Source: Sedimentisphaera cyanobacteriorum (GTDB taxonomy: Bacteria > Planctomycetota > Phycisphaerae > Sedimentisphaerales > Sedimentisphaeraceae). Taken from it: 32,000 nt of DNA. The position numbers and the translations under genes are program-made. The notes below the pieces were generated by a model. That model had not been told where the DNA came from, did no database searches, and saw only the letters and a list, made by a program, of their open reading frames with translations. The stretch spans positions 2,550,001 to 2,582,000 of the forward strand of contig NZ_CP019633.1 in the NCBI RefSeq assembly GCF_001997385.1. Direction: 5' to 3'. Of this stretch, positions 1,123 through 12,934 are shown in pieces; within the stretch, counting starts at the first letter, position 1; the number at the start of each line of letters is the position of its first letter.

Positions 1123-3252
1123 ATGACTGATCTTCTTGAAAAAAGAGAGAACTGGGGCTCTCGCGGCGGGTTTATTCTGGCTGCCGTGGGCTCGGCTGTA
1201 GGGCTGGGCAACCTTTGGGCTTTCCCGTACAAGATATACAGTTACGGAGGCGGGGCATTCCTGATCCCGTACATCATCGCGCTGTTTGCCGTTGGCCTGC
1301 CTTTAATTATTCTCGAATTCAGCCTCGGCCACTACACCCAGAGAGCTGCTCCAAATGCAATGCGGCGCTGCGTGAAGCCGTTTGAGGGGATTGGATGGCT
1401 CGGCAGCTTTATGTGCATCCTGATCATCTGCTATTATCCGGTAATCCTCGGCTACTGCCTTACATACCTCGGCTACAGCATTCAGGGTATATTCAACGGA
1501 GGCGAGCTGCCCTGGGCGGCGGAAGGAATTCAGGGGATCAATCAGGCAAAGGGCTTTTTCTTCGATAAATACCTCAACTATCAGGACAGCTTCAGCCTCG
1601 GCGGGCTTGAGCTCAAGGTTCTCGGGCCTGTAATCATAGTATGGATACTAATGTATCTTTGTATTTTCAAGGGAGTTAATCTTGTGGGCAAGATTGTATG
1701 GCTCACAGTTCCTATACCTTGGATTATGCTGATAATCCTAACCGTTCGCGGGCTTACGCTCGACGGGAGCACCGAAGGCCTTGCATACTACCTCTCTCCG
1801 GACTTCTCGGAACTTGCAAAACCGATAACTCGCAAGGCGTGCGGCGGTGTGCGCAGCTCTCCGGACTTCTCGGAACTTGCAAAACCGATAACATGGCGAT
1901 ACGCCTTCGGCCAGGTGTTTTTCTCTATGAGCCTTGGCTGGGGGACTATGATTGCATATTCCAGCTTCCTGCACAGGAAAAGCGATTTGAACAACAATGC
2001 GGGAATAATAACACTCACAGACTTTGCGACAAGCTTCATCGCTGGTATTGCGATATTCGCAACGCTCGGCGGGATGTCTTACGTTACCGCTCAGGCGGGC
2101 AATGCAGTGCCTGTGGATCAGGTGGCCGATAAAGGGGTTTCGCTTGCATTTATCGCCTTCCCCTATACTCTCGCCCAGCTGCCGTTCTCGGCTTGGTTCA
2201 GCTTTTTCTTCTTCCTCGCCCTTGTAACGCTTGGTATAGATTCGGCATTTTCTATAACAGAAACCCTGCTTGCGAGCATCGTTGATAAAACCGGCTTCTC
2301 ACGCGGGAAGGTTCTTGTGGTAATGACAGTTGCAGGGATTTTTGTGAGCTCTGTTTTCGCCACGCAAGGCGGGCTTAACTGGGTAGGCGAGATAGACGGA
2401 ATTGTAAACGGTACGTTCGGCGCCGCCTTTCTCGGCCTGCTGGAATGCCTTGCAATAGGCTGGTTTTACCGGCTCGACTACCTCAGGAAACACAGCAACT
2501 CCTGCAGTGAATGGCCTCTGGGCAAGTGGTGGGATTTGAGCATAAGGATTGTTATTCCGATAATCCTCGGAACACTTTTCTTCTGGAACATATTCGACAA
2601 GTCAACAGCGGGCACCCCTATCAAAAATCCAGAAGGCGGGTATAACATTAATGTGCTCGTTACTACCGCTGTAACCGCTTTGGGCTTCCTGCTGGCCGGC
2701 CTTGCTACGCTGGCAAAAACCAGAATACAGGATCGAGTGCCGAATATACCCCATCTCAAGCTCAACGATATGGCAAACCGCAAAAAAATCAGAAGGCACT
2801 TTTCTTCCTCGTGCGTAATATTTGCACTTTCGATTGCTGCGTTTGGATTGACGATACACAATACCACCCGCCCCGATTCGGTAATACTTGGTCAGAAGCT
2901 TGTGATGTTCCTTGCATACCTGCTTATAATATCCGCTGCGGTGGATGCGTTTCAGGCTGAGAAGAATATAAGCTGCTTGGGCGAGCTTAGAAAACTGCCC
3001 AACATCCAAGCGGGCGCATCGGGGGTTATGAGCGTTATGAGCATAAGCGCATGCCTCTCTGTAATACTTACTTACCTTTCCGAACTTCTGCTTGATGAGA
3101 AGGCAAAGGCAGAAATACCGGATTCTTTGACAACTGTTTCATATATCATACTCGCTTTTGTAACGATTGTAGTAGTGGGCGGTTTGATATGGAGCTTCCA
3201 CAGGATTAAGGCATCAAAAAATAGTGATTTGCAGGAAACTGAAGCGATTTAA
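1123..3252 (+). CDS. sodium:neurotransmitter symporter (NSS/SNF, SLC6-like) family transporter, unusually long (709 aa)
   Basis: The N-terminal signature WGSRGGFILAAVGSAVGLGNLWAFPYK and the TM6 signature WRYAFGQVFFSMSLGWG are diagnostic of the NSS family. There are many hydrophobic segments and about 200 extra C-terminal residues with further hydrophobic stretches. Confidence 0.9.
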   Translation: MTDLLEKRENWGSRGGFILAAVGSAVGLGNLWAFPYKIYSYGGGAFLIPYIIALFAVGLPLIILEFSLGHYTQRAAPNAMRRCVKPFEGIGWLGSFMCILIICYYPVILGYCLTYLGYSIQGIFNGGELPWAAEGIQGINQAKGFFFDKYLNYQDSFSLGGLELKVLGPVIIVWILMYLCIFKGVNLVGKIVWLTVPIPWIMLIILTVRGLTLDGSTEGLAYYLSPDFSELAKPITRKACGGVRSSPDFSELAKPITWRYAFGQVFFSMSLGWGTMIAYSSFLHRKSDLNNNAGIITLTDFATSFIAGIAIFATLGGMSYVTAQAGNAVPVDQVADKGVSLAFIAFPYTLAQLPFSAWFSFFFFLALVTLGIDSAFSITETLLASIVDKTGFSRGKVLVVMTVAGIFVSSVFATQGGLNWVGEIDGIVNGTFGAAFLGLLECLAIGWFYRLDYLRKHSNSCSEWPLGKWWDLSIRIVIPIILGTLFFWNIFDKSTAGTPIKNPEGGYNINVLVTTAVTALGFLLAGLATLAKTRIQDRVPNIPHLKLNDMANRKKIRRHFSSSCVIFALSIAAFGLTIHNTTRPDSVILGQKLVMFLAYLLIISAAVDAFQAEKNISCLGELRKLPNIQAGASGVMSVMSISACLSVILTYLSELLLDEKAKAEIPDSLTTVSYIILAFVTIVVVGGLIWSFHRIKASKNSDLQETEAI
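1794..1892 (+). repeat. two identical 36-bp direct repeats (1794-1829 and 1857-1892) separated by a 27-bp filler, in frame inside the NSS transporter gene
   Basis: CTCTCCGGACTTCTCGGAACTTGCAAAACCGATAAC occurs twice with a 63-bp period. The peptide SPDFSELAKPIT is encoded twice. Confidence 0.97.
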
Positions 3253-4171: not shown

Positions 4172-5047
4172 ATGGCAGGAAAAACAAAGAGAACAGCCTC
4201 AAAGAATAAATCTCCTAAAAAATCTGCCAGAAGATCTTATTGGAGAGCCTTATTTCGGCTTCCGGGTTTAATTCTTATAATCGGTGCGGTTTATGCGTCC
4301 GTCTGGGGAATCCTTAATGCTGAAAATCACATAAAGCAGGAGATTATAAGAGAGTCTGAAAGGGAGATAAGTATGGTTCTGCGGGGCTATCCAAACTGGA
4401 TTAACGCTTCGCTTAAAAGGAGGATCGTGGAGCAGGGCTATATCGGCCTTGAAAAGCTTACTGCGAGCCCGGGAACCGCAAAGCTCGTTGCGAAGAACCT
4501 CAAGTCTAAGTTTCCCTGGCTGAAAAATGTTCGGGTTCAGACCTCGATAAACCGGCTCACAATAGATGCGGACTACCGAAAGCCCGCTGTGCTTTTAAGG
4601 CACAAATCCGCTAAATACTATATCTCTGAGGATATGACGGTGCTGGATTATATCCCTATTGACAGCTTGAGCGTGCCGGAGGTTTCGGGTGTGGTGCTTG
4701 CATCTGCGCCTTCGCCGGGCGAGCCGCTTTTTCACGAGCAGATCAAGGCTTCTGTTAAGCTAACCCAGCTGTTCAGGGCGATGGACAAATCCAGATCACG
4801 CAAATTCCTGAAGCAGGTTGAAAGCATAGACGTTGAGAACTACGGGATCACAGATTCCTCAATCCCCCAAATCGTGATCAAAACAAAGGAAGAACTGGAT
4901 ATCTTCTGGGGAGCTGCGCCGGGAGATGCCGAGGCGTATTTCGAGATGCCCGAGAAGAAAAAACTCGCTGTGCTATATACAATCTTTGAATCTCATCCAA
5001 ACCTAAAAGGCAGATACGAGAATATAGACCTGCGTTTTGAACAGTAG
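4172..5047 (+). CDS. bitopic membrane protein, putative FtsQ/DivIB-like cell-division protein
   Basis: I chose ATG 4172, with GAGGTG just upstream and 5 nt after the ddl stop. The protein has a Lys/Arg-rich N-terminus, one TM segment (LPGLILIIGAVYASVWGIL) and an extracytoplasmic domain of about 230 aa. It lies directly after ddl, as in dcw clusters. I made no motif-level identification. Confidence 0.5.
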   Translation: MAGKTKRTASKNKSPKKSARRSYWRALFRLPGLILIIGAVYASVWGILNAENHIKQEIIRESEREISMVLRGYPNWINASLKRRIVEQGYIGLEKLTASPGTAKLVAKNLKSKFPWLKNVRVQTSINRLTIDADYRKPAVLLRHKSAKYYISEDMTVLDYIPIDSLSVPEVSGVVLASAPSPGEPLFHEQIKASVKLTQLFRAMDKSRSRKFLKQVESIDVENYGITDSSIPQIVIKTKEELDIFWGAAPGDAEAYFEMPEKKKLAVLYTIFESHPNLKGRYENIDLRFEQ

Positions 5048-5182: not shown

Positions 5183-5340
5183 CGCGAAGGATTATTATAA
5201 ATTGTTTTACAGCAAGCTCTTACAGTCACAAAATTATCTGTGCCATTTGTGCCATCTGTGGATAATAAACTTCGCTGCGATTTCACGAAACGAACATTTA
5301 TCTGCATTTCTCCGATAACCTCTCCGCCTGCGGCGGACAG
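5183..5340 (+). repeat. intergenic repeat family A, copy 1 (AT-rich part with CTGTGGATAATAAACTTCGCTGCG, ending in hairpin CCGCCTGCGGCGG)
   Basis: It aligns by eye over about 150 bp with the reverse complement of 12791-12934. Shared blocks are CGCGAAG..GATTwTTATAAATTkTTTT..GCTyTTACA, CTGTGGATAAwAAAyTTCGCTGCG and CTCCGCCTGCGGCGGAC. Confidence 0.75.
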
Positions 5341-5360: not shown

Positions 5361-5436
5361 CGTACTACAGCGGAGTCCGCCGCGGCGGACCCACTAGCCC
5401 CGATTTCTCACTTAGCGTTCAAAATCGTGAAAAATC
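5361..5436 (-). repeat. intergenic repeat family B, copy in inverted orientation (contains the perfect 16-bp palindrome GTCCGCCGCGGCGGAC at 5375-5390)
   Basis: The reverse complement, GATTTTTCACG...CTAGTGGGTCCGCCGCGGCGGACTCCGCTGTAGTACG, aligns with 10906-10978, GATTTTTCGC...CTAGCGGGTCCGCCACGGCGAACACCGCTGTACG. Confidence 0.8.
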
Positions 5437-5544
5437 AAAATTTTTTCTTTGATTCTGCGTTGTAATCGGCGTTTAAAAGTCTCTTTAGTCTCTGGTACAG
5501 ACCTGCCCTATTGCAAGTGATTTTTCATCAGCAATAATATTGTT

Positions 5545-6741
5545 ATGTACTTGAAGAAGCACAAGCGAAAGAAGAATGGTAAGATCAATTCCTATTACAG
5601 CATAGCGGAGAAGCGTAAGGTTTCTCGCGGGCGTTATGTTGAGAAGATGGTGCTGTATCTTGGTGAAATCTCTGATTCTCAGAAGAAGTCTTGGCAGAGA
5701 TCCATTGAGATAATCAACGAGGACAACAAGCCTGTCCGCAAGTCATTATTCGCTTTTGATCAGGACAATCACACACATCACGACATAGATACGATTCCGG
5801 TAAAGCTCTCAAAGATGAAGCTTAACAACCCCAGAACATTCGGGGACTGCTGGCTCGGCTGCGAGATATGGGATATGCTGGGATTAGACACCTTCTGGTC
5901 GGAGAGGATAGACACTGCCAAATCGCCGGTTGACTATTCCAAAGTTGTAAAATTGCTGACAGTAAACCGTCTTATCAAGCCCGGAGCGGAGTTTTATGTC
6001 CACCGGCACTGGTTCACTCAGACCGCAATGGATGTATTGCTGGGCTGTGAATTTGATGTTGCCGAAAAAAACCGGCTTTACCGTTGTCTGGACAGGATAT
6101 TGCCGTATAAAGAAGAGCTTTGTTCTTATTTGAAAGACACATGGCAGATGATGTTCAATCTGGAATATGACATTCTGCTTTACGATATAACCAGTACTTA
6201 TTTTGAGGGATTATGCAAAAGCAATCCCAAGGCAAAATTCGGCCACAGCAAAGACCGCAGAGGCGATTGCAGGCAGATTCTTATCGCTTTGGTAGTTACC
6301 CCTGAGGGATTTCCGATCAATTATGAGATACTCGCCGGCAACACCTCAGAGAGAACAACGCTTAAACCCTTGTTAAACAAGATAGAGTCGAAATACGGCA
6401 AGGCAGGCAGGTTATGGCTGATGGACAGAGGTATTCCAACAGAAGCTGTGCTGGAGTATATGCGTGATAACGGGATTGATTATCTTGTCGGAACGCCCCG
6501 TAAGCTGCTGGATGAATTCCAAGAAGAGCTTTCTGTGAAAAGCTGGTTTGATGTAAATGGAATCGTTCGCATAAAGCATATAGCCAAAGATGACGAATGC
6601 TATATTCTTGCTCGAAGCAAAGAGAGAATGGCTAAAGAACGGGCTATGCGTAAAAGAAAGCTCCGTAATTACTTAGAAGGACTGGAGAAGTTAAAGAAAT
6701 GCCGCAGCCGAGATGTTTTTATGCAAAGGCTCGGCAAACTC
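5545..6741 (+). pseudogene. IS1634-family transposase gene (outer element), N-terminal 399 codons, interrupted by insertion of another IS
   Basis: The N-terminus MYLKKHKRKKNGKINSYYSIAEKRKVSRGRYVEKMVLYLGEI and the DDE-region motifs LLYDITSTYFEG and LWLMDRGI are IS1634-like. The ORF runs into the inverted repeat of the inserted IS at 6741 and stops at 6759. Confidence 0.85.
5941..6741 (+). repeat. 801-bp direct repeat, copy 1 (left flank of inner IS)
   Basis: I compared it line by line with 8615-9415 and found no mismatch. Confidence 0.95.
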
Positions 6742-6850
6742 CTGACTTCGGCGGTATGATTGTGGAAAACTCTGCAAAAAGTGCGTTTTGAGGCTGTTAT
6801 GAGGGTTTGTTAAGTTCGGTTCGCTCGTAGTGCCTAATTTTTTATTTTTT

Positions 6851-6878
6851 TTGACACAATGTTTTGATTTCGTATAAT
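6851..6878 (+). promoter_or_regulatory. sigma-70-type promoter of the inner IS transposase
   Basis: TTGACA (6851-6856), a 16-bp spacer and TATAAT (6873-6878), ending 8 nt before ATG 6887. Confidence 0.7.
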
Positions 6879-6886
6879 CTGCATTT

Positions 6887-8509
6887 ATGTTTATACGAGT
6901 AAAGACATCAAAAAACAGTCCGAAGCAGTCGGTACAGATTGTAGAGAGTTATCGCAACGAGAAGAACCAGCCTCGTCAGCGTATAGTTCGTCATCTCGGC
7001 ACAGCCTTCACAGAAGAAGAGCTTAAGCGGCTCAAGGATTTTGCCGAATTCGAGAAGGCCAAGCTTGAGGCCGAGAAAACGCCGGCACTTTTCAAGCCTG
7101 AGCATCTTGCAGAAGCTGCAATAGTTGCCCGCAAAAACATTGATGATAAGCCTTTGCGGGTCAATCTAAAGAATCTCAGGGAACAGGCACGCATAACTAC
7201 AGGCATCCATGAGGTATTCGGCAGCATCTACAATGAGCTTGGCTTTAACAATCTTTTCGATAGACGCAAAGAGTCTGCAGGCAAAAACCTTCGTCATATC
7301 ACAATGGCAAGGCTTGCAAACCCAGTGAGCAAACGCAGCAGCGTTCAGGATCTCTCCAAAGACTTCGGCATTAACCTTTCTTTAGACAGCGTTTACCGTA
7401 TGATGGATAATATCACAGATGATATTATCAGCAAGGCTCAAAACTGTGCTCACAGTGCTGCTAAAGGCCTTCTCGGCGAAGAGATAAGTCTTCTTTTCTA
7501 CGACTGCACCACGCTTTATTTTGAATCATTTACAGAAGATGAGCTCAAAAAGAACGGCTACAGCAAGGATATGAAGTTCAATCAGCCGCAGGTTGTCCTT
7601 GGTCTTCTGTCCACATCAGAAGGGCTTCCAGTAGGTTATGAGGTATTCCCCGGCAATCAGTATGAAGGGCATACGCTGCATACTGTAATCCCTAAGATCA
7701 AAGAGAAATACAACCTCAAGCGTGTTATCTTCACCGCAGACAGCGCAATGCTTAGCAAGGCTAATCTTGATTACCTTGAAAAGCAGGGAGTTGAGTATAT
7801 TGTGGCAGCGAGGCTTAAAAGCCTCACTGATAAATGGAAAGCAAAGGTTACAGAATCCAATGCCCCGCTTAGAAGCTTTGATTACGGCAAAGATACAAGG
7901 CTTATTGTTACCTACAGCGATAAACTCGCTAAAAAGAATAAGCACGACAGGGATGAAGCTATAAGAAAGCTCCAGGAGAAGCTTGAAAAGAGCAGCAACC
8001 CCAAATCACTTATAAGCAACTACGGCTACAAGAAGTTTATGCGTGTTACCGGCGATATAGATTGCCGGATAGATGAAGAGAAATATGAAGAGGCTGCGAA
8101 TTTTGATGGTCTTCACGGTGTTATAACGAATGTTAAGGATATGGATGATTCGGCTGTAGTAGATCATTACAGGCAGCTCTGGCTGATTGAAGAGTGCTTC
8201 AGGATAAGCAAGCACGATCTGAAGATACGGCCGATATACCACTGGACGCCGAAACGAATCAAAGCCCATATACTGATATGCTTTATCGCTCTAACCTGCG
8301 CGAGAAATCTGGCCTACAGGGTTCGGCTGAGATTTGAGCCGATGTCTGTGGCGAGGATTGTAAATTCGCTCAACCACGTGCAGCTGAGCATACTCTGGGA
8401 TAAGAAAACAGAGTGCAGATATGCCCTGCCATCAAAGATTAACGAGGACGCAAGAAAACTCTATAAAACAGTTAATCTCAGCACCAATACAACGCCTTAC
8501 AAAATGTAA
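6887..8509 (+). CDS. IS1634-family DDE transposase (intact, 540 aa)
   Basis: The N-terminus MFIRVKTSKNSPKQSVQIVESYRNEKNQPRQRIVRHLG is typical of the family. DDE-region motifs are LFYDCTTLYFE, FTADSAMLS and YRQLWLIEECFRISKHDLKIRPIYHW. Confidence 0.9.
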   Translation: MFIRVKTSKNSPKQSVQIVESYRNEKNQPRQRIVRHLGTAFTEEELKRLKDFAEFEKAKLEAEKTPALFKPEHLAEAAIVARKNIDDKPLRVNLKNLREQARITTGIHEVFGSIYNELGFNNLFDRRKESAGKNLRHITMARLANPVSKRSSVQDLSKDFGINLSLDSVYRMMDNITDDIISKAQNCAHSAAKGLLGEEISLLFYDCTTLYFESFTEDELKKNGYSKDMKFNQPQVVLGLLSTSEGLPVGYEVFPGNQYEGHTLHTVIPKIKEKYNLKRVIFTADSAMLSKANLDYLEKQGVEYIVAARLKSLTDKWKAKVTESNAPLRSFDYGKDTRLIVTYSDKLAKKNKHDRDEAIRKLQEKLEKSSNPKSLISNYGYKKFMRVTGDIDCRIDEEKYEEAANFDGLHGVITNVKDMDDSAVVDHYRQLWLIEECFRISKHDLKIRPIYHWTPKRIKAHILICFIALTCARNLAYRVRLRFEPMSVARIVNSLNHVQLSILWDKKTECRYALPSKINEDARKLYKTVNLSTNTTPYKM

Positions 8510-8614
8510 TTTCACCCGCCGAAAAACCTTCCGAAATAGGGTTTGTAGTGCCTGCGCAAAAAATCGAGTCCTTTATTGACAAGGACTTATGAAAATTTAC
8601 CGCCGAAGTCAGGA

Positions 8615-9415
8615 AAAGTTGTAAAATTGCTGACAGTAAACCGTCTTATCAAGCCCGGAGCGGAGTTTTATGTCCACCGGCACTGGTTCACTCAGACCGC
8701 AATGGATGTATTGCTGGGCTGTGAATTTGATGTTGCCGAAAAAAACCGGCTTTACCGTTGTCTGGACAGGATATTGCCGTATAAAGAAGAGCTTTGTTCT
8801 TATTTGAAAGACACATGGCAGATGATGTTCAATCTGGAATATGACATTCTGCTTTACGATATAACCAGTACTTATTTTGAGGGATTATGCAAAAGCAATC
8901 CCAAGGCAAAATTCGGCCACAGCAAAGACCGCAGAGGCGATTGCAGGCAGATTCTTATCGCTTTGGTAGTTACCCCTGAGGGATTTCCGATCAATTATGA
9001 GATACTCGCCGGCAACACCTCAGAGAGAACAACGCTTAAACCCTTGTTAAACAAGATAGAGTCGAAATACGGCAAGGCAGGCAGGTTATGGCTGATGGAC
9101 AGAGGTATTCCAACAGAAGCTGTGCTGGAGTATATGCGTGATAACGGGATTGATTATCTTGTCGGAACGCCCCGTAAGCTGCTGGATGAATTCCAAGAAG
9201 AGCTTTCTGTGAAAAGCTGGTTTGATGTAAATGGAATCGTTCGCATAAAGCATATAGCCAAAGATGACGAATGCTATATTCTTGCTCGAAGCAAAGAGAG
9301 AATGGCTAAAGAACGGGCTATGCGTAAAAGAAAGCTCCGTAATTACTTAGAAGGACTGGAGAAGTTAAAGAAATGCCGCAGCCGAGATGTTTTTATGCAA
9401 AGGCTCGGCAAACTC
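8615..9415 (+). repeat. 801-bp direct repeat, copy 2 (right flank of inner IS)
   Basis: Identical to 5941-6741. Confidence 0.95.
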
Positions 9416-9541
9416 AAACATCAGGCGGGCAGCTGCCGTAAGTGTGTAACTCTTACGATTCCCCGAAATAAGGAAAGGATTGAGAAGGCGAGTTTGATTA
9501 TAAGTTTGAAGCGAGCAAATATAAAGAAACTTAGATTTTAA
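8615..9541 (+). pseudogene. outer IS1634-family transposase gene, duplicated middle part plus 42 further codons, 3'-truncated or degenerate
   Basis: The translation VVKLLTVNRL...RLGKL is identical to residues of the 5545 ORF. It then continues KHQAGSCRKCVTLTIP... and stops at 9541. The C-terminal YxxxWxIExxF block seen in the inner IS transposase is absent. Confidence 0.8.
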
Positions 9542-9600
9542 TTTGAAGCGCAACGCTTCGCTAATTTAATCAGCCCGCGTGGCGGGCTGGAGTTTATCGC
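9534..9600 (+). repeat. possible degenerate relative of repeat family B (ACGCTTCGCTA followed by hairpin CAGCCCGCGTGGCGGGCTG)
   Basis: It shares the layout GATTTT..ACGyTTCGCTA..GC-rich palindrome with 10906-10978. Identity is low. Confidence 0.35.
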
Positions 9601-9777
9601 TTTTAGCTGCCTGAATAGATAAAGAATAAGGGCGGCGGTTAAGCCGCCTCTATCCAGTATAGATTGTTGCGGTGCTCGGGTTGCTCTCCAGCATTGCCCT
9701 ATCCCCTGCAACAAGATAATCTATTATAGCGATGGCGATTGCTTTTAAAAAGTAAAAAAGAGCACCCATTACGGTTG

Positions 9778-10905
9778 TTTTCGATAGAATGTTTTTTTGA
9801 CGAAAAAGTACTCTATTTAAGGAACCGCAATGGGCTATAGACATCTTAACATTAATGAGCGAGAAAGCATTCTAAAAATGCGATCTGAAGGAAAAAATTT
9901 ACTGGAAATCGCCATATATCTCGGCAGGAGCAAGGGCACTATCAGCCGTGAGTTGAATCGAAACATGTCCTCAACCCATGATTATAAGCCCCACCTGGCC
10001 CAGCGATATTACAGCAAACGCAGGGCCGCATCCAAGCAGCCATATCGGCTTGAACAGAATGGCCGTCTTCGTCGTCGAGTATGCAGTAAACTCGAGCAAT
10101 ATCACTCGCCTGAACAGATAGCAGGCCGTCTTGAAATCGACTATCCAGATAATGCCCAAATGCGTGTAAGCCCTTTGACCATATATAGTTGGGTTAAACG
10201 AGACAAGGTTGACGGCGGTGTTTTTTACAAGTTTTTGCGTCAAGGCCGTCGCAAACGACGAAAGAAGCACGGCAGTAATGACAAGCGTGGCCGGATACCG
10301 AACAAACGTTCGATCAGTGAGCGTCCGGAGGTTGTTGACAAGCGTAATCGCTTCGGCGATTGGGAGGGTGACAGCGTCAGCGGTAAAGGACACGGTTCAT
10401 TTATTGCGACACTTGTCGAGCGTGCAAGCCGCTATCTGCTCTCTGGCAGGATGAAAGATAAGAGTGCCCAGAGCATGAATGAAACCACCCGAAGGTTGTT
10501 CAGGAAGATACCAAAGTCCAAGCGTCAAACGATGACAGTTGACAATGGCAAGGAGTTTGCCCAGTTTAAAGAGATGGAAAAAACAGTCGGCCTATGCTGC
10601 TACTTTGCTGATCCATACAGTTCTTATCAGCGTGGAACTAATGAAAACACAAACGGCCTGCTTCGTCAGTTCTTCCCTAAGGGAACTGATTTTAAGAAAG
10701 TTAGTGATAAGGAACTTGACAAAGTTGTCGCCTTAATCAATAATCGATCAAGGAAATGTTTAAAATATCGGACACCAAATGAAGTGCTCTGGAGCGATGA
10801 AAAAAGTTGCGCTTCAGATTTTATTCTAAGTATTAAAAATAGGTAACTGTCCCCTGTTTTTACAGCGGCGCGACGCAAGTCGCCCGCTGGCATTCTTTTC
10901 GAAAA
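9778..10905 (+). mobile_element. IS30-family element, boundaries tentative
   Basis: TTTTCGATAGAATG (9778-9791) pairs imperfectly with the reverse complement of CATTCTTTTCGAAAA (10891-10905). Homology to repeat family B starts exactly at 10906. I recognised no target duplication. Confidence 0.35.
9830..10846 (+). CDS. IS30-family transposase (338 aa)
   Basis: The N-terminal HTH is LNINERESILKMRSEGKNLLEIAIYLGRSKGTISRELNRN. DDE-region motifs are FGDWEGDSV, MTVDNGKEFA and RGTNENTNGLLRQFFPKGTDF. Confidence 0.9.
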   Translation: MGYRHLNINERESILKMRSEGKNLLEIAIYLGRSKGTISRELNRNMSSTHDYKPHLAQRYYSKRRAASKQPYRLEQNGRLRRRVCSKLEQYHSPEQIAGRLEIDYPDNAQMRVSPLTIYSWVKRDKVDGGVFYKFLRQGRRKRRKKHGSNDKRGRIPNKRSISERPEVVDKRNRFGDWEGDSVSGKGHGSFIATLVERASRYLLSGRMKDKSAQSMNETTRRLFRKIPKSKRQTMTVDNGKEFAQFKEMEKTVGLCCYFADPYSSYQRGTNENTNGLLRQFFPKGTDFKKVSDKELDKVVALINNRSRKCLKYRTPNEVLWSDEKSCASDFILSIKNR

Positions 10906-12291: not shown

Positions 12292-12612
12292 GTATAATCA
12301 ATTAGCTTACTGGTTTCAAATTAAAGCTTCAGATTAGTTTGTCAATATTTCATCGCAGGCTAAACCGCAGAGTGTGCGAGAATATTTTTGGCAAAGCTTT
12401 TTAAAGCCGAGTCTGTCCGCACAGACGCAGGGGAAATATTTAATCAACAGATTACACAGAGTTTTTATATAATATAACAACATCTTCCTCCGTTATTGTA
12501 AATTGCATTTACATTTGGAGGGGTACAGGCACATAAATGGGGGGCTCTCTGCCGGCAGCTAAGTTGCTGCGCAATACATAATTTTATTCTGATGCGGAAA
12601 ATGTGTTTTTTT

Positions 12613-12703
12613 CCTGACTTCGGCGGTAAATTTTCATAAGTCCTTGTCAATAAAGGACTCAATTTTTTGCGCAGGCACTACAAACCCTTTCTCGGAAGCT
12701 TTC
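12613..12703 (-). mobile_element. solo right-end fragment (about 91 bp) of the inner IS1634-family element, inverted orientation
   Basis: CCTGACTTCGGCGGTAAATTTTCATAAGTCCTTGTCAATAAAGGACTC.ATTTTTTGCGCAGGCACTACAAACCC matches the reverse complement of 8523-8613 with a few mismatches. Homology is lost after about 12703. Confidence 0.85.
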
Positions 12704-12790
12704 TATTATTAAAAATAGGCAGCTGTCCTCTATTTCTATGCCTTATTACTTTTTCCTTCTGCTTATTTGCAATGGTTTTTATCCAATTAT

Positions 12791-12934
12791 TTCTCCGCCT
12801 GCGGCGGACGCAACAAGCGGATAGATGATTTTGCGAGCCCGCAGCGAAATTTTTTATCCACAGATTACCGCTGGTTGTATTTAAGATTGTAAAGCATTGC
12901 AAAAAATTTATAAAAAATCTTCGAGGGCTTCGCG
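12791..12934 (-). repeat. intergenic repeat family A, copy 2 (inverted)
   Basis: See 5183-5340. Confidence 0.75.

Follow-up and report, generated by a model that had tools for sequence, protein, structure and literature searches.

Long target duplications at a nested IS1634-family insertion in Sedimentisphaera cyanobacteriorum and at related insertions

We analysed a stretch of 32,000 nucleotides (nt) of the genome of Sedimentisphaera cyanobacteriorum, a member of the Phycisphaerae in the Planctomycetota (assembly GCF_001997385.1, contig NZ_CP019633.1, positions 2,550,001 to 2,582,000 of the forward strand; hereafter the window), in which one insertion sequence (IS) of the IS1634 family lies inside the transposase gene of another. 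The inner IS is bordered on both sides by the same 800-base-pair (bp) segment of the outer gene. We suggest that the second copy of this segment very probably arose as a target-site duplication (TSD), made when the inner IS transposed into the outer one.

The nested insertion

The features of the insertion are as follows, in window coordinates.

5398–5940, + strand: left end of the outer IS and start of its transposase gene (ATG at 5545); the left end, CCCCGATTTCTCACTTAGCG, matches the ends of the relatives L049–L051
5941–6740, + strand: left copy of the presumed 800-bp TSD, identical to 8615–9414; internal part of the outer transposase gene
6741–8613, + strand: inner IS, IS1634 family, complete, 1,873 bp; ends CCTGACTTCGGCGGTA / TACCGCCGAAGTCAGG
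6741–6756, + strand: left terminal inverted repeat of the inner IS; with the T at 6740 it measures 17 bp
6851–6878, + strand: promoter-like site TTGACA-N16-TATAAT, a 12/12 consensus match, upstream of the inner transposase gene
6887–8509, + strand: inner transposase gene, 540 amino acids (aa), an uninterrupted open reading frame (ORF) with a DDE_Tnp_1 domain (AQQ10217.1 / WP_077541224.1)
8598–8613, + strand: right terminal inverted repeat of the inner IS, a perfect match to the left one
8614, + strand: single A between the IS right end and the right TSD copy, unpaired, the target having C at 5940
8615–9414, + strand: right copy of the presumed 800-bp TSD, identical to 5941–6740
9415–9528, + strand: continuation of the outer transposase gene past the duplication; frameshifted near 9487 and ending abruptly at 9528

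Base-by-base comparison of the window gives an identity run of 801 bp with 0 mismatches (5941–6741 = 8615–9415), and the flanks immediately outside the two copies bear no relation to each other. The exact gap between the copies is filled by the complete 1,873-bp IS. The ends of this IS were set as CC[T/C]GAC...GTC[A/G]GG from 21 related insertions, and the true duplication is therefore 800 and not 801 bp long. By this placement the duplication proper is 5941–6740 = 8615–9414, the inner element is 6741–8613, and the 801st matching base (C, 6741 = 9415) is the first base of the IS, which matches the target by chance. The last base of the left TSD copy, immediately ahead of the IS end CCTGAC, is T, which is also the case in 21 of 21 related insertions; counted with this T, the inverted repeats are perfect over 17 nt (TCCTGACTTCGGCGGTA / TACCGCCGAAGTCAGGA at 6740–6756 and 8598–8614). 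A first-pass annotation of the same DNA had described the perfect 801-bp duplication, a complete IS at 6741–8613 exactly between its copies, perfect 16-bp terminal repeats, a TTGACA-N16-TATAAT promoter and an intact 540-aa transposase. All five descriptions agree with our comparison: the IS ends match those of the 21 related insertions, the frame is open throughout 6887–8509, and the site at 6851–6878 is a putative promoter by its full consensus match.

The inner transposase is 100% identical to S. cyanobacteriorum AQQ10217.1 / WP_077541224.1, which carries the NCBI label ‘IS1634 family transposase’, and it scores 375.2 bits (cut-off 100) against the NCBIfam model NF033559 (IS1634 family) over profile positions 1–482 of 483. 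Residues D206, D285 and E435, a putative DDE triad, are invariant in an alignment of 10 sequences, and the D-to-E spacer is 150 aa. The arrangement Y428-(6)-E435-(6)-K442 is present, with L431 where IS4 has the R of YREK. The family is described as having a long spacer between the second D and the E, a YREK-like motif usually without the R, a length of 1,500–2,000 bp and the terminal consensus C-----YT (PMC2266710). Both ends of the inner IS read CCTGACTT and fit this consensus, and its 1,873 bp fall within the length range. We assign the inner IS to the IS1634 family on its sequence. At least 8 further near-identical copies of its transposase are annotated in the S. cyanobacteriorum genome (AQQ08391, 08610, 08643, 09023, 09585, 09746, 09945 and 10122). 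Among the genome contigs scanned, the best match to the inner transposase has 59% aa identity.

The outer transposase scores 186.8 bits against NF033559 (cut-off 100) over profile positions 33–354 of 483, consistent with a truncated gene, and inner and outer transposases are 25% identical. We assign the outer IS to a second, different IS1634-family lineage. With 375 and 187 bits and this low identity, the first-pass view that the duplicated target is the transposase gene of a different IS1634-family element stands. To reconstruct the uninterrupted outer gene, we excised the inner IS together with one of the two repeats. The genome also contains an intact 586-aa copy, P0126, to which the resulting ORF is 97% identical overall; over residues 1–423 the two align gap-free with one substitution, while beyond residue 423 the match shifts frame. 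P0126, which is the kind of uninterrupted outer-IS copy that the first pass had proposed to look for, aligns continuously at the protein level across the insertion point, between ...RLGKL and KHQAG.... Since this alignment is gap-free across the junction, no target sequence was lost on insertion, and all that was gained is the IS and about 800 bp present a second time. The outer IS is multicopy in the genome, with 5 members in the P0126 cluster.

Duplications in relatives and in the literature

The same architecture recurs in relatives of the inner IS. On the S. salicampi chromosome (CP021023.1) 6 of 6 IS copies, 87% identical at the nucleotide level over the full IS length and 90% at the protein level, have perfect TSDs. 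In all six the TSD copies directly adjoin the IS, the left one stopping at its left end and the right one starting at its right end, and all six insertions are in ordinary chromosomal sequence, in unrelated single-copy genes. Distant relatives with TSDs of 19 to about 1,190 bp span four or more phyla. The TSD lengths, with the identity of each relative, are as follows.

S. salicampi, 6 copies (87% nt, 90% aa): 43, 73, 97, 186, 355 and 1,743 bp, all perfect
Limihaloglobus sulfuriphilus (68% aa): about 57 bp
Melioribacteraceae, two genomes (about 57% aa): 19, 28, 42, 80, 185, 209 and 222 bp
Pseudomonadales genome (47% aa): 59, 133, 154, 202 and 478 bp
Cytophagales contig (about 50% aa): 52 bp
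Two metagenome contigs (52–56% aa): 780 bp (12 mismatches) and 894 bp (perfect)
Bacteroidales contig (49% aa): about 1,190 bp (96% identical)

With the window included, the 24 events range from 19 to 1,743 bp with a median of about 170 bp, and their lengths are roughly log-uniform. TSD lengths differ among copies of one IS in S. salicampi and in three other multicopy relatives, and no short-duplication copy of the inner-IS lineage was seen among the relatives scored. These comparisons support the view that long, variable and exactly abutting TSDs are the normal insertion behaviour of this lineage. The first pass had called 800 bp an extreme case, which does not hold within the element's own lineage: five of the 24 events are longer than 514 bp, all of them at least 780 bp, and the maximum is 1,743 bp. 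This longest TSD (S. salicampi L039, 3112–4854 / 6727–8469; CP021023.1 1576410–1588032, reversed) holds a complete 462-aa sulfatase gene, and both copies of the gene in L039 are intact and identical.

Most of the 77 metagenome contigs with related elements (L052–L128) measure about 1.9–2.5 kb, roughly the IS alone, and their flanks did not suffice for scoring. Such IS-only contigs would be expected if short-read assemblies break at multicopy elements bordered by long perfect repeats, so that long duplications are probably under-observed in metagenome contigs. One further locus, L034, was left unscored, its left flank recurring 1.8 kb into the right flank and not abutting the IS. Three copies in the Pseudomonadales genome (CBDBDZ010000013/14; L014 5756–5867, L016 7759–7870 and L022 5735–5865) are without a duplication of their own; two of their left flanks equal the right flank of the third over about 112–130 bp. 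This looks like TSD halves separated by inter-IS recombination, though in a history of some complexity.

Relatives of the outer IS behave differently from the inner IS. L049–L051 (contigs of ERZ21862665, with the ends of the IS at 4860 and 6844) carry duplications of 4 bp, TTAA or CTAA. The outer-IS copy in the window is preceded by CTAG. In L050/L051 two outer-IS relatives 2.9 kb apart bracket a 237-aa HTH_17/PTS_EIIA_2 gene, in a composite-transposon-like arrangement.

Among known systems, IS1634 of Mycoplasma mycoides subsp. mycoides SC, reportedly described by Vilei et al. in 1999, is about 1.87 kb long, which is similar to the inner IS. It belongs to the same NF033559 family, and its long repeats differ from copy to copy. 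The typical duplication of the IS1634 family is 5–6 bp and AT-rich according to De Palmenaer et al. 2008, where IS1549 of Mycobacterium smegmatis and IS1634 are listed with long variable repeats of, combined, 8–514 bp, and no mechanistic model had been proposed for these as of 2008 (PMC2266710). The first-pass statement that the prototype IS1634 is known for such repeats is borne out by this source. The inner IS, with 800 bp, departs from the typical duplication; since the description of the family already names IS1634 and IS1549 as departing from it, a TSD of this length is compatible with IS1634-family membership. The inner IS differs from IS1634 in having a planctomycete and not a mollicute host, and in that 800 bp (1,743 bp in the sister species S. 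salicampi) exceeds 8–514 bp. IS1549 is likewise an IS1634-family element with long variable direct repeats, from another phylum and with shorter published lengths, and is likened here by description. With IS1549 already known from Mycobacterium smegmatis, the occurrence “outside Mollicutes” that the first pass took for a novelty is not one. The longest published length that we found is 514 bp, and the window is thus a longer-than-published example of a known oddity.

ISGka5 of Geobacillus kaustophilus, which makes a 6-bp duplication as determined experimentally (PMC8024623), shares with the outer IS the family model, a long-spacer DDE transposase and C-----YT ends. Unlike the inner IS, ISGka5 (6 bp) and the outer-IS relatives (4 bp) make short fixed duplications, and the long-duplication habit is therefore confined to particular lineages within the IS1634 family and is not family-wide. 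A literature phrase search for long duplications of prokaryotic ISs returned only a 55-bp ISH2 case, there called “extremely long”, and a paper on the IS1202 family (PMC10132070); a paper on the Microcystis mobilome contained nothing on duplications. A planctomycete host, a lineage-wide trait in multiple phyla, lengths of 780–1,743 bp, duplication of a whole gene and junction rules were not found in the literature searched, which did not extend to ISfinder and the original 1998/1999 papers, so that a prior description is possible.

Junction rules, a possible mechanism and the alternatives

The junctions of the related insertions follow simple rules. At the right end, 18 of the 19 scorable events have the same base behind the IS as ahead of the left TSD copy (15 times A, three times G); because three events carry G at both places, this base is derived from the target. 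At the left end, T precedes the IS in 21 of 21 events. Taken together, these counts at the two ends mean that both IS 3′ ends attach to purines, mostly to A. Read outward from the left end the target has an A-tract, with A at positions 1–5 in 21, 12, 16, 13 and 13 of 21 events, while the right end shows a weak A-R-R-W pattern. The two IS ends choose their target sites differently.

The purine joining, the strong A-tract at the left end only, the lack of helical periodicity and the roughly log-uniform lengths suggest two spatially uncoupled single-end strand transfers. We propose this account because the ends differ in site preference, helical periodicity is absent and the lengths are broad. 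At the first step the two IS 3′ ends would be joined to opposite target strands at sites without fixed spacing, each end beside a purine and the left end preferring an A-tract. Converging synthesis, by strand displacement or repair, would next start from the two target 3′-OH ends and run through the segment between them, leaving a copy of it on either side of the element. Recruitment of the host replication machinery may occur via a candidate beta-clamp motif, Q-x-S-[I/L]-L with Q499 invariant, which is conserved across the inner-IS lineage and reads QLSIL here (residues 499–503, 8381–8395). IS1634-family transposases bind the beta sliding clamp (PMC4549789). The motif could link the insertion to host replication, and we take it as only a lead.

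The abutting TSDs in 6 of 6 S. salicampi copies and in distant relatives strongly support a very long TSD, which was also the preferred reading of the first pass. Two other histories had been offered, recombination and misassembly; as widely staggered target joining is the norm of the lineage, neither is necessary. In the former, two outer-IS copies would have been hit at different sites (5940/5941 and 6740/6741) with short duplications, and a crossover within the inner IS would have duplicated the 800 bp. Both elements are indeed multicopy in the genome (5 members in the P0126 cluster, at least 9 copies of the inner IS), and inter-copy exchange seems to occur in relatives (the L014 left flank equals the L016 right flank). 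However, such a history needs two independent hits in the same 1.3-kb target as well as the crossover, the same architecture is found at some 23 other insertions in unrelated, mostly ordinary chromosomal sequence, where single-copy target genes leave no such route open, and the relatives scored include no short-duplication copy of the lineage; we consider it very unlikely. That the 800-bp segment is in truth single, and was doubled when a repeat loop was traversed twice or IS copies were mis-joined, is hardly credible, even though IS copies and repeats are a classic cause of misassembly. For this contig to be assembled, reads must contain both junctions, the one from the target end to the IS left end and the one from the IS right end to the target start; the junctions obey the T / purine rule of the lineage, and the same structure is present in independent assemblies, namely the finished S. 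salicampi chromosome, OY782765 (a single chromosome record), metagenome-assembled genomes and metagenome contigs. A tandem dimer or a pre-existing tandem duplication was also considered and rejected, the repeat being an internal 800-bp segment that abuts the IS ends exactly, in an arrangement seen at many unrelated targets.

Some points weigh against a TSD made at insertion, or against the way in which we suppose it to be made. The window is the sole exception to the right-end rule among the 19 scorable events, with A at 8614 and C at 5940; this A could be a later mutation, or a terminal base coming from the IS (e.g. 5′ T of the non-transferred strand). The variable long TSDs were measured in relatives, the exact window IS being represented by one copy only, whose structure is known from assembled sequence, and about nine related copies are without duplication. 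Duplication length shows no helical periodicity (P about 0.96–1.0 versus jittered nulls), and IS orientation relative to local GC skew shows no replication-strand bias (11 positive, 10 negative). The uncoupled strand transfers, the displacement synthesis and the role of the clamp are steps that we infer. Alternatively, the duplication could be made at a replication fork, where the IS ends would join two sister duplexes at non-equivalent positions, with subsequent resolution. The upper lengths observed (about 1–2 kb) are of the order of bacterial Okazaki fragments. The binding of the beta clamp by IS1634-family transposases (PMC4549789), together with the matching candidate motif conserved in the lineage, would also suit a fork. 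Against it stand the unbiased orientation and the lengths, which look log-uniform from 19 bp up and are not centred on a fragment size. We regard the fork as a possible but rather unlikely source of the duplication.

Returning to insertion with a long TSD, we lean slightly towards a broader claim: that a widespread lineage (Planctomycetota, Ignavibacteriota/Bacteroidota, Gammaproteobacteria) routinely makes TSDs between about 20 bp and 1.7 kb or more, which would exceed in length all those reported for prokaryotic ISs, and so performs a transposition-coupled segmental duplication able to copy whole genes, for which the junction rules are maybe the first mechanistic handle. A fixed TSD length is a signature of how a transposase holds its target; this lineage breaks the rule by two orders of magnitude, which points to two end-joining reactions that can be uncoupled. 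The window and its relatives carry the range beyond the published 514 bp, to 800–1,743 bp, and the trait, lineage-wide and present in several phyla, offers 24 natural events from which clear junction rules emerge. Complete genes can be duplicated in this way, and the long perfect repeats of such insertions, which break short-read assemblies, can be mistaken for artefacts or recombination products. Their main value is, in our view, as an entry point to an unexplained transposition mechanism.

Neighbouring elements and other repeats

Two further elements lie beside the nested insertion.

9529–10831, + strand: IS30-family element that truncates the outer IS, 1,303 bp; 26-nt inverted repeats at 9529–9554 / 10806–10831, 85% complementary
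12612–12702, − strand: solo inverted remnant of the right end of another inner-IS copy; alignment 12609–12702, 94 nt with 4 mismatches (96%) to 8524–8617

The ORF at 9830–10846 scores 308.7 bits against NF033563 (IS30; cut-off 80) and has HTH_38 and rve domains. The outer IS lacks its last third, which comprises about 150 codons and the right end, and no outer-IS coding sequence follows the IS30 element. With the frameshift near 9487, the truncation at 9528/9529 and the distal third absent, we judge this copy of the outer IS to be dead.

The inner-IS remnant at 12609–12702 is cut at IS position 8524 by a sequence beginning TATTAAAAATAGGCAGCTGTCC, and a similar sequence (84% over 32 nt, 10831–10862) stands directly after the IS30 right end at 10831. 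Sequence of the TATTAAAAATAGGCAGCTGTCC type may mark where another repeated element ends, or may be a favoured target. Short repeats at 5254–5338 and 12778–12865 bracket the IS cluster (direct over 32 nt, 84%; inverted over 37 nt, 81%) and contain CTCCGCCTGCGGCGGAC; the pieces that bear it may belong to an intergenic repeat family. Last, a 709-aa sodium:neurotransmitter symporter ORF (1123–3252) contains a perfect 36-bp direct repeat (1794–1829 / 1857–1892), the copies of which are spaced by 63 bp and hence are in the same reading frame.

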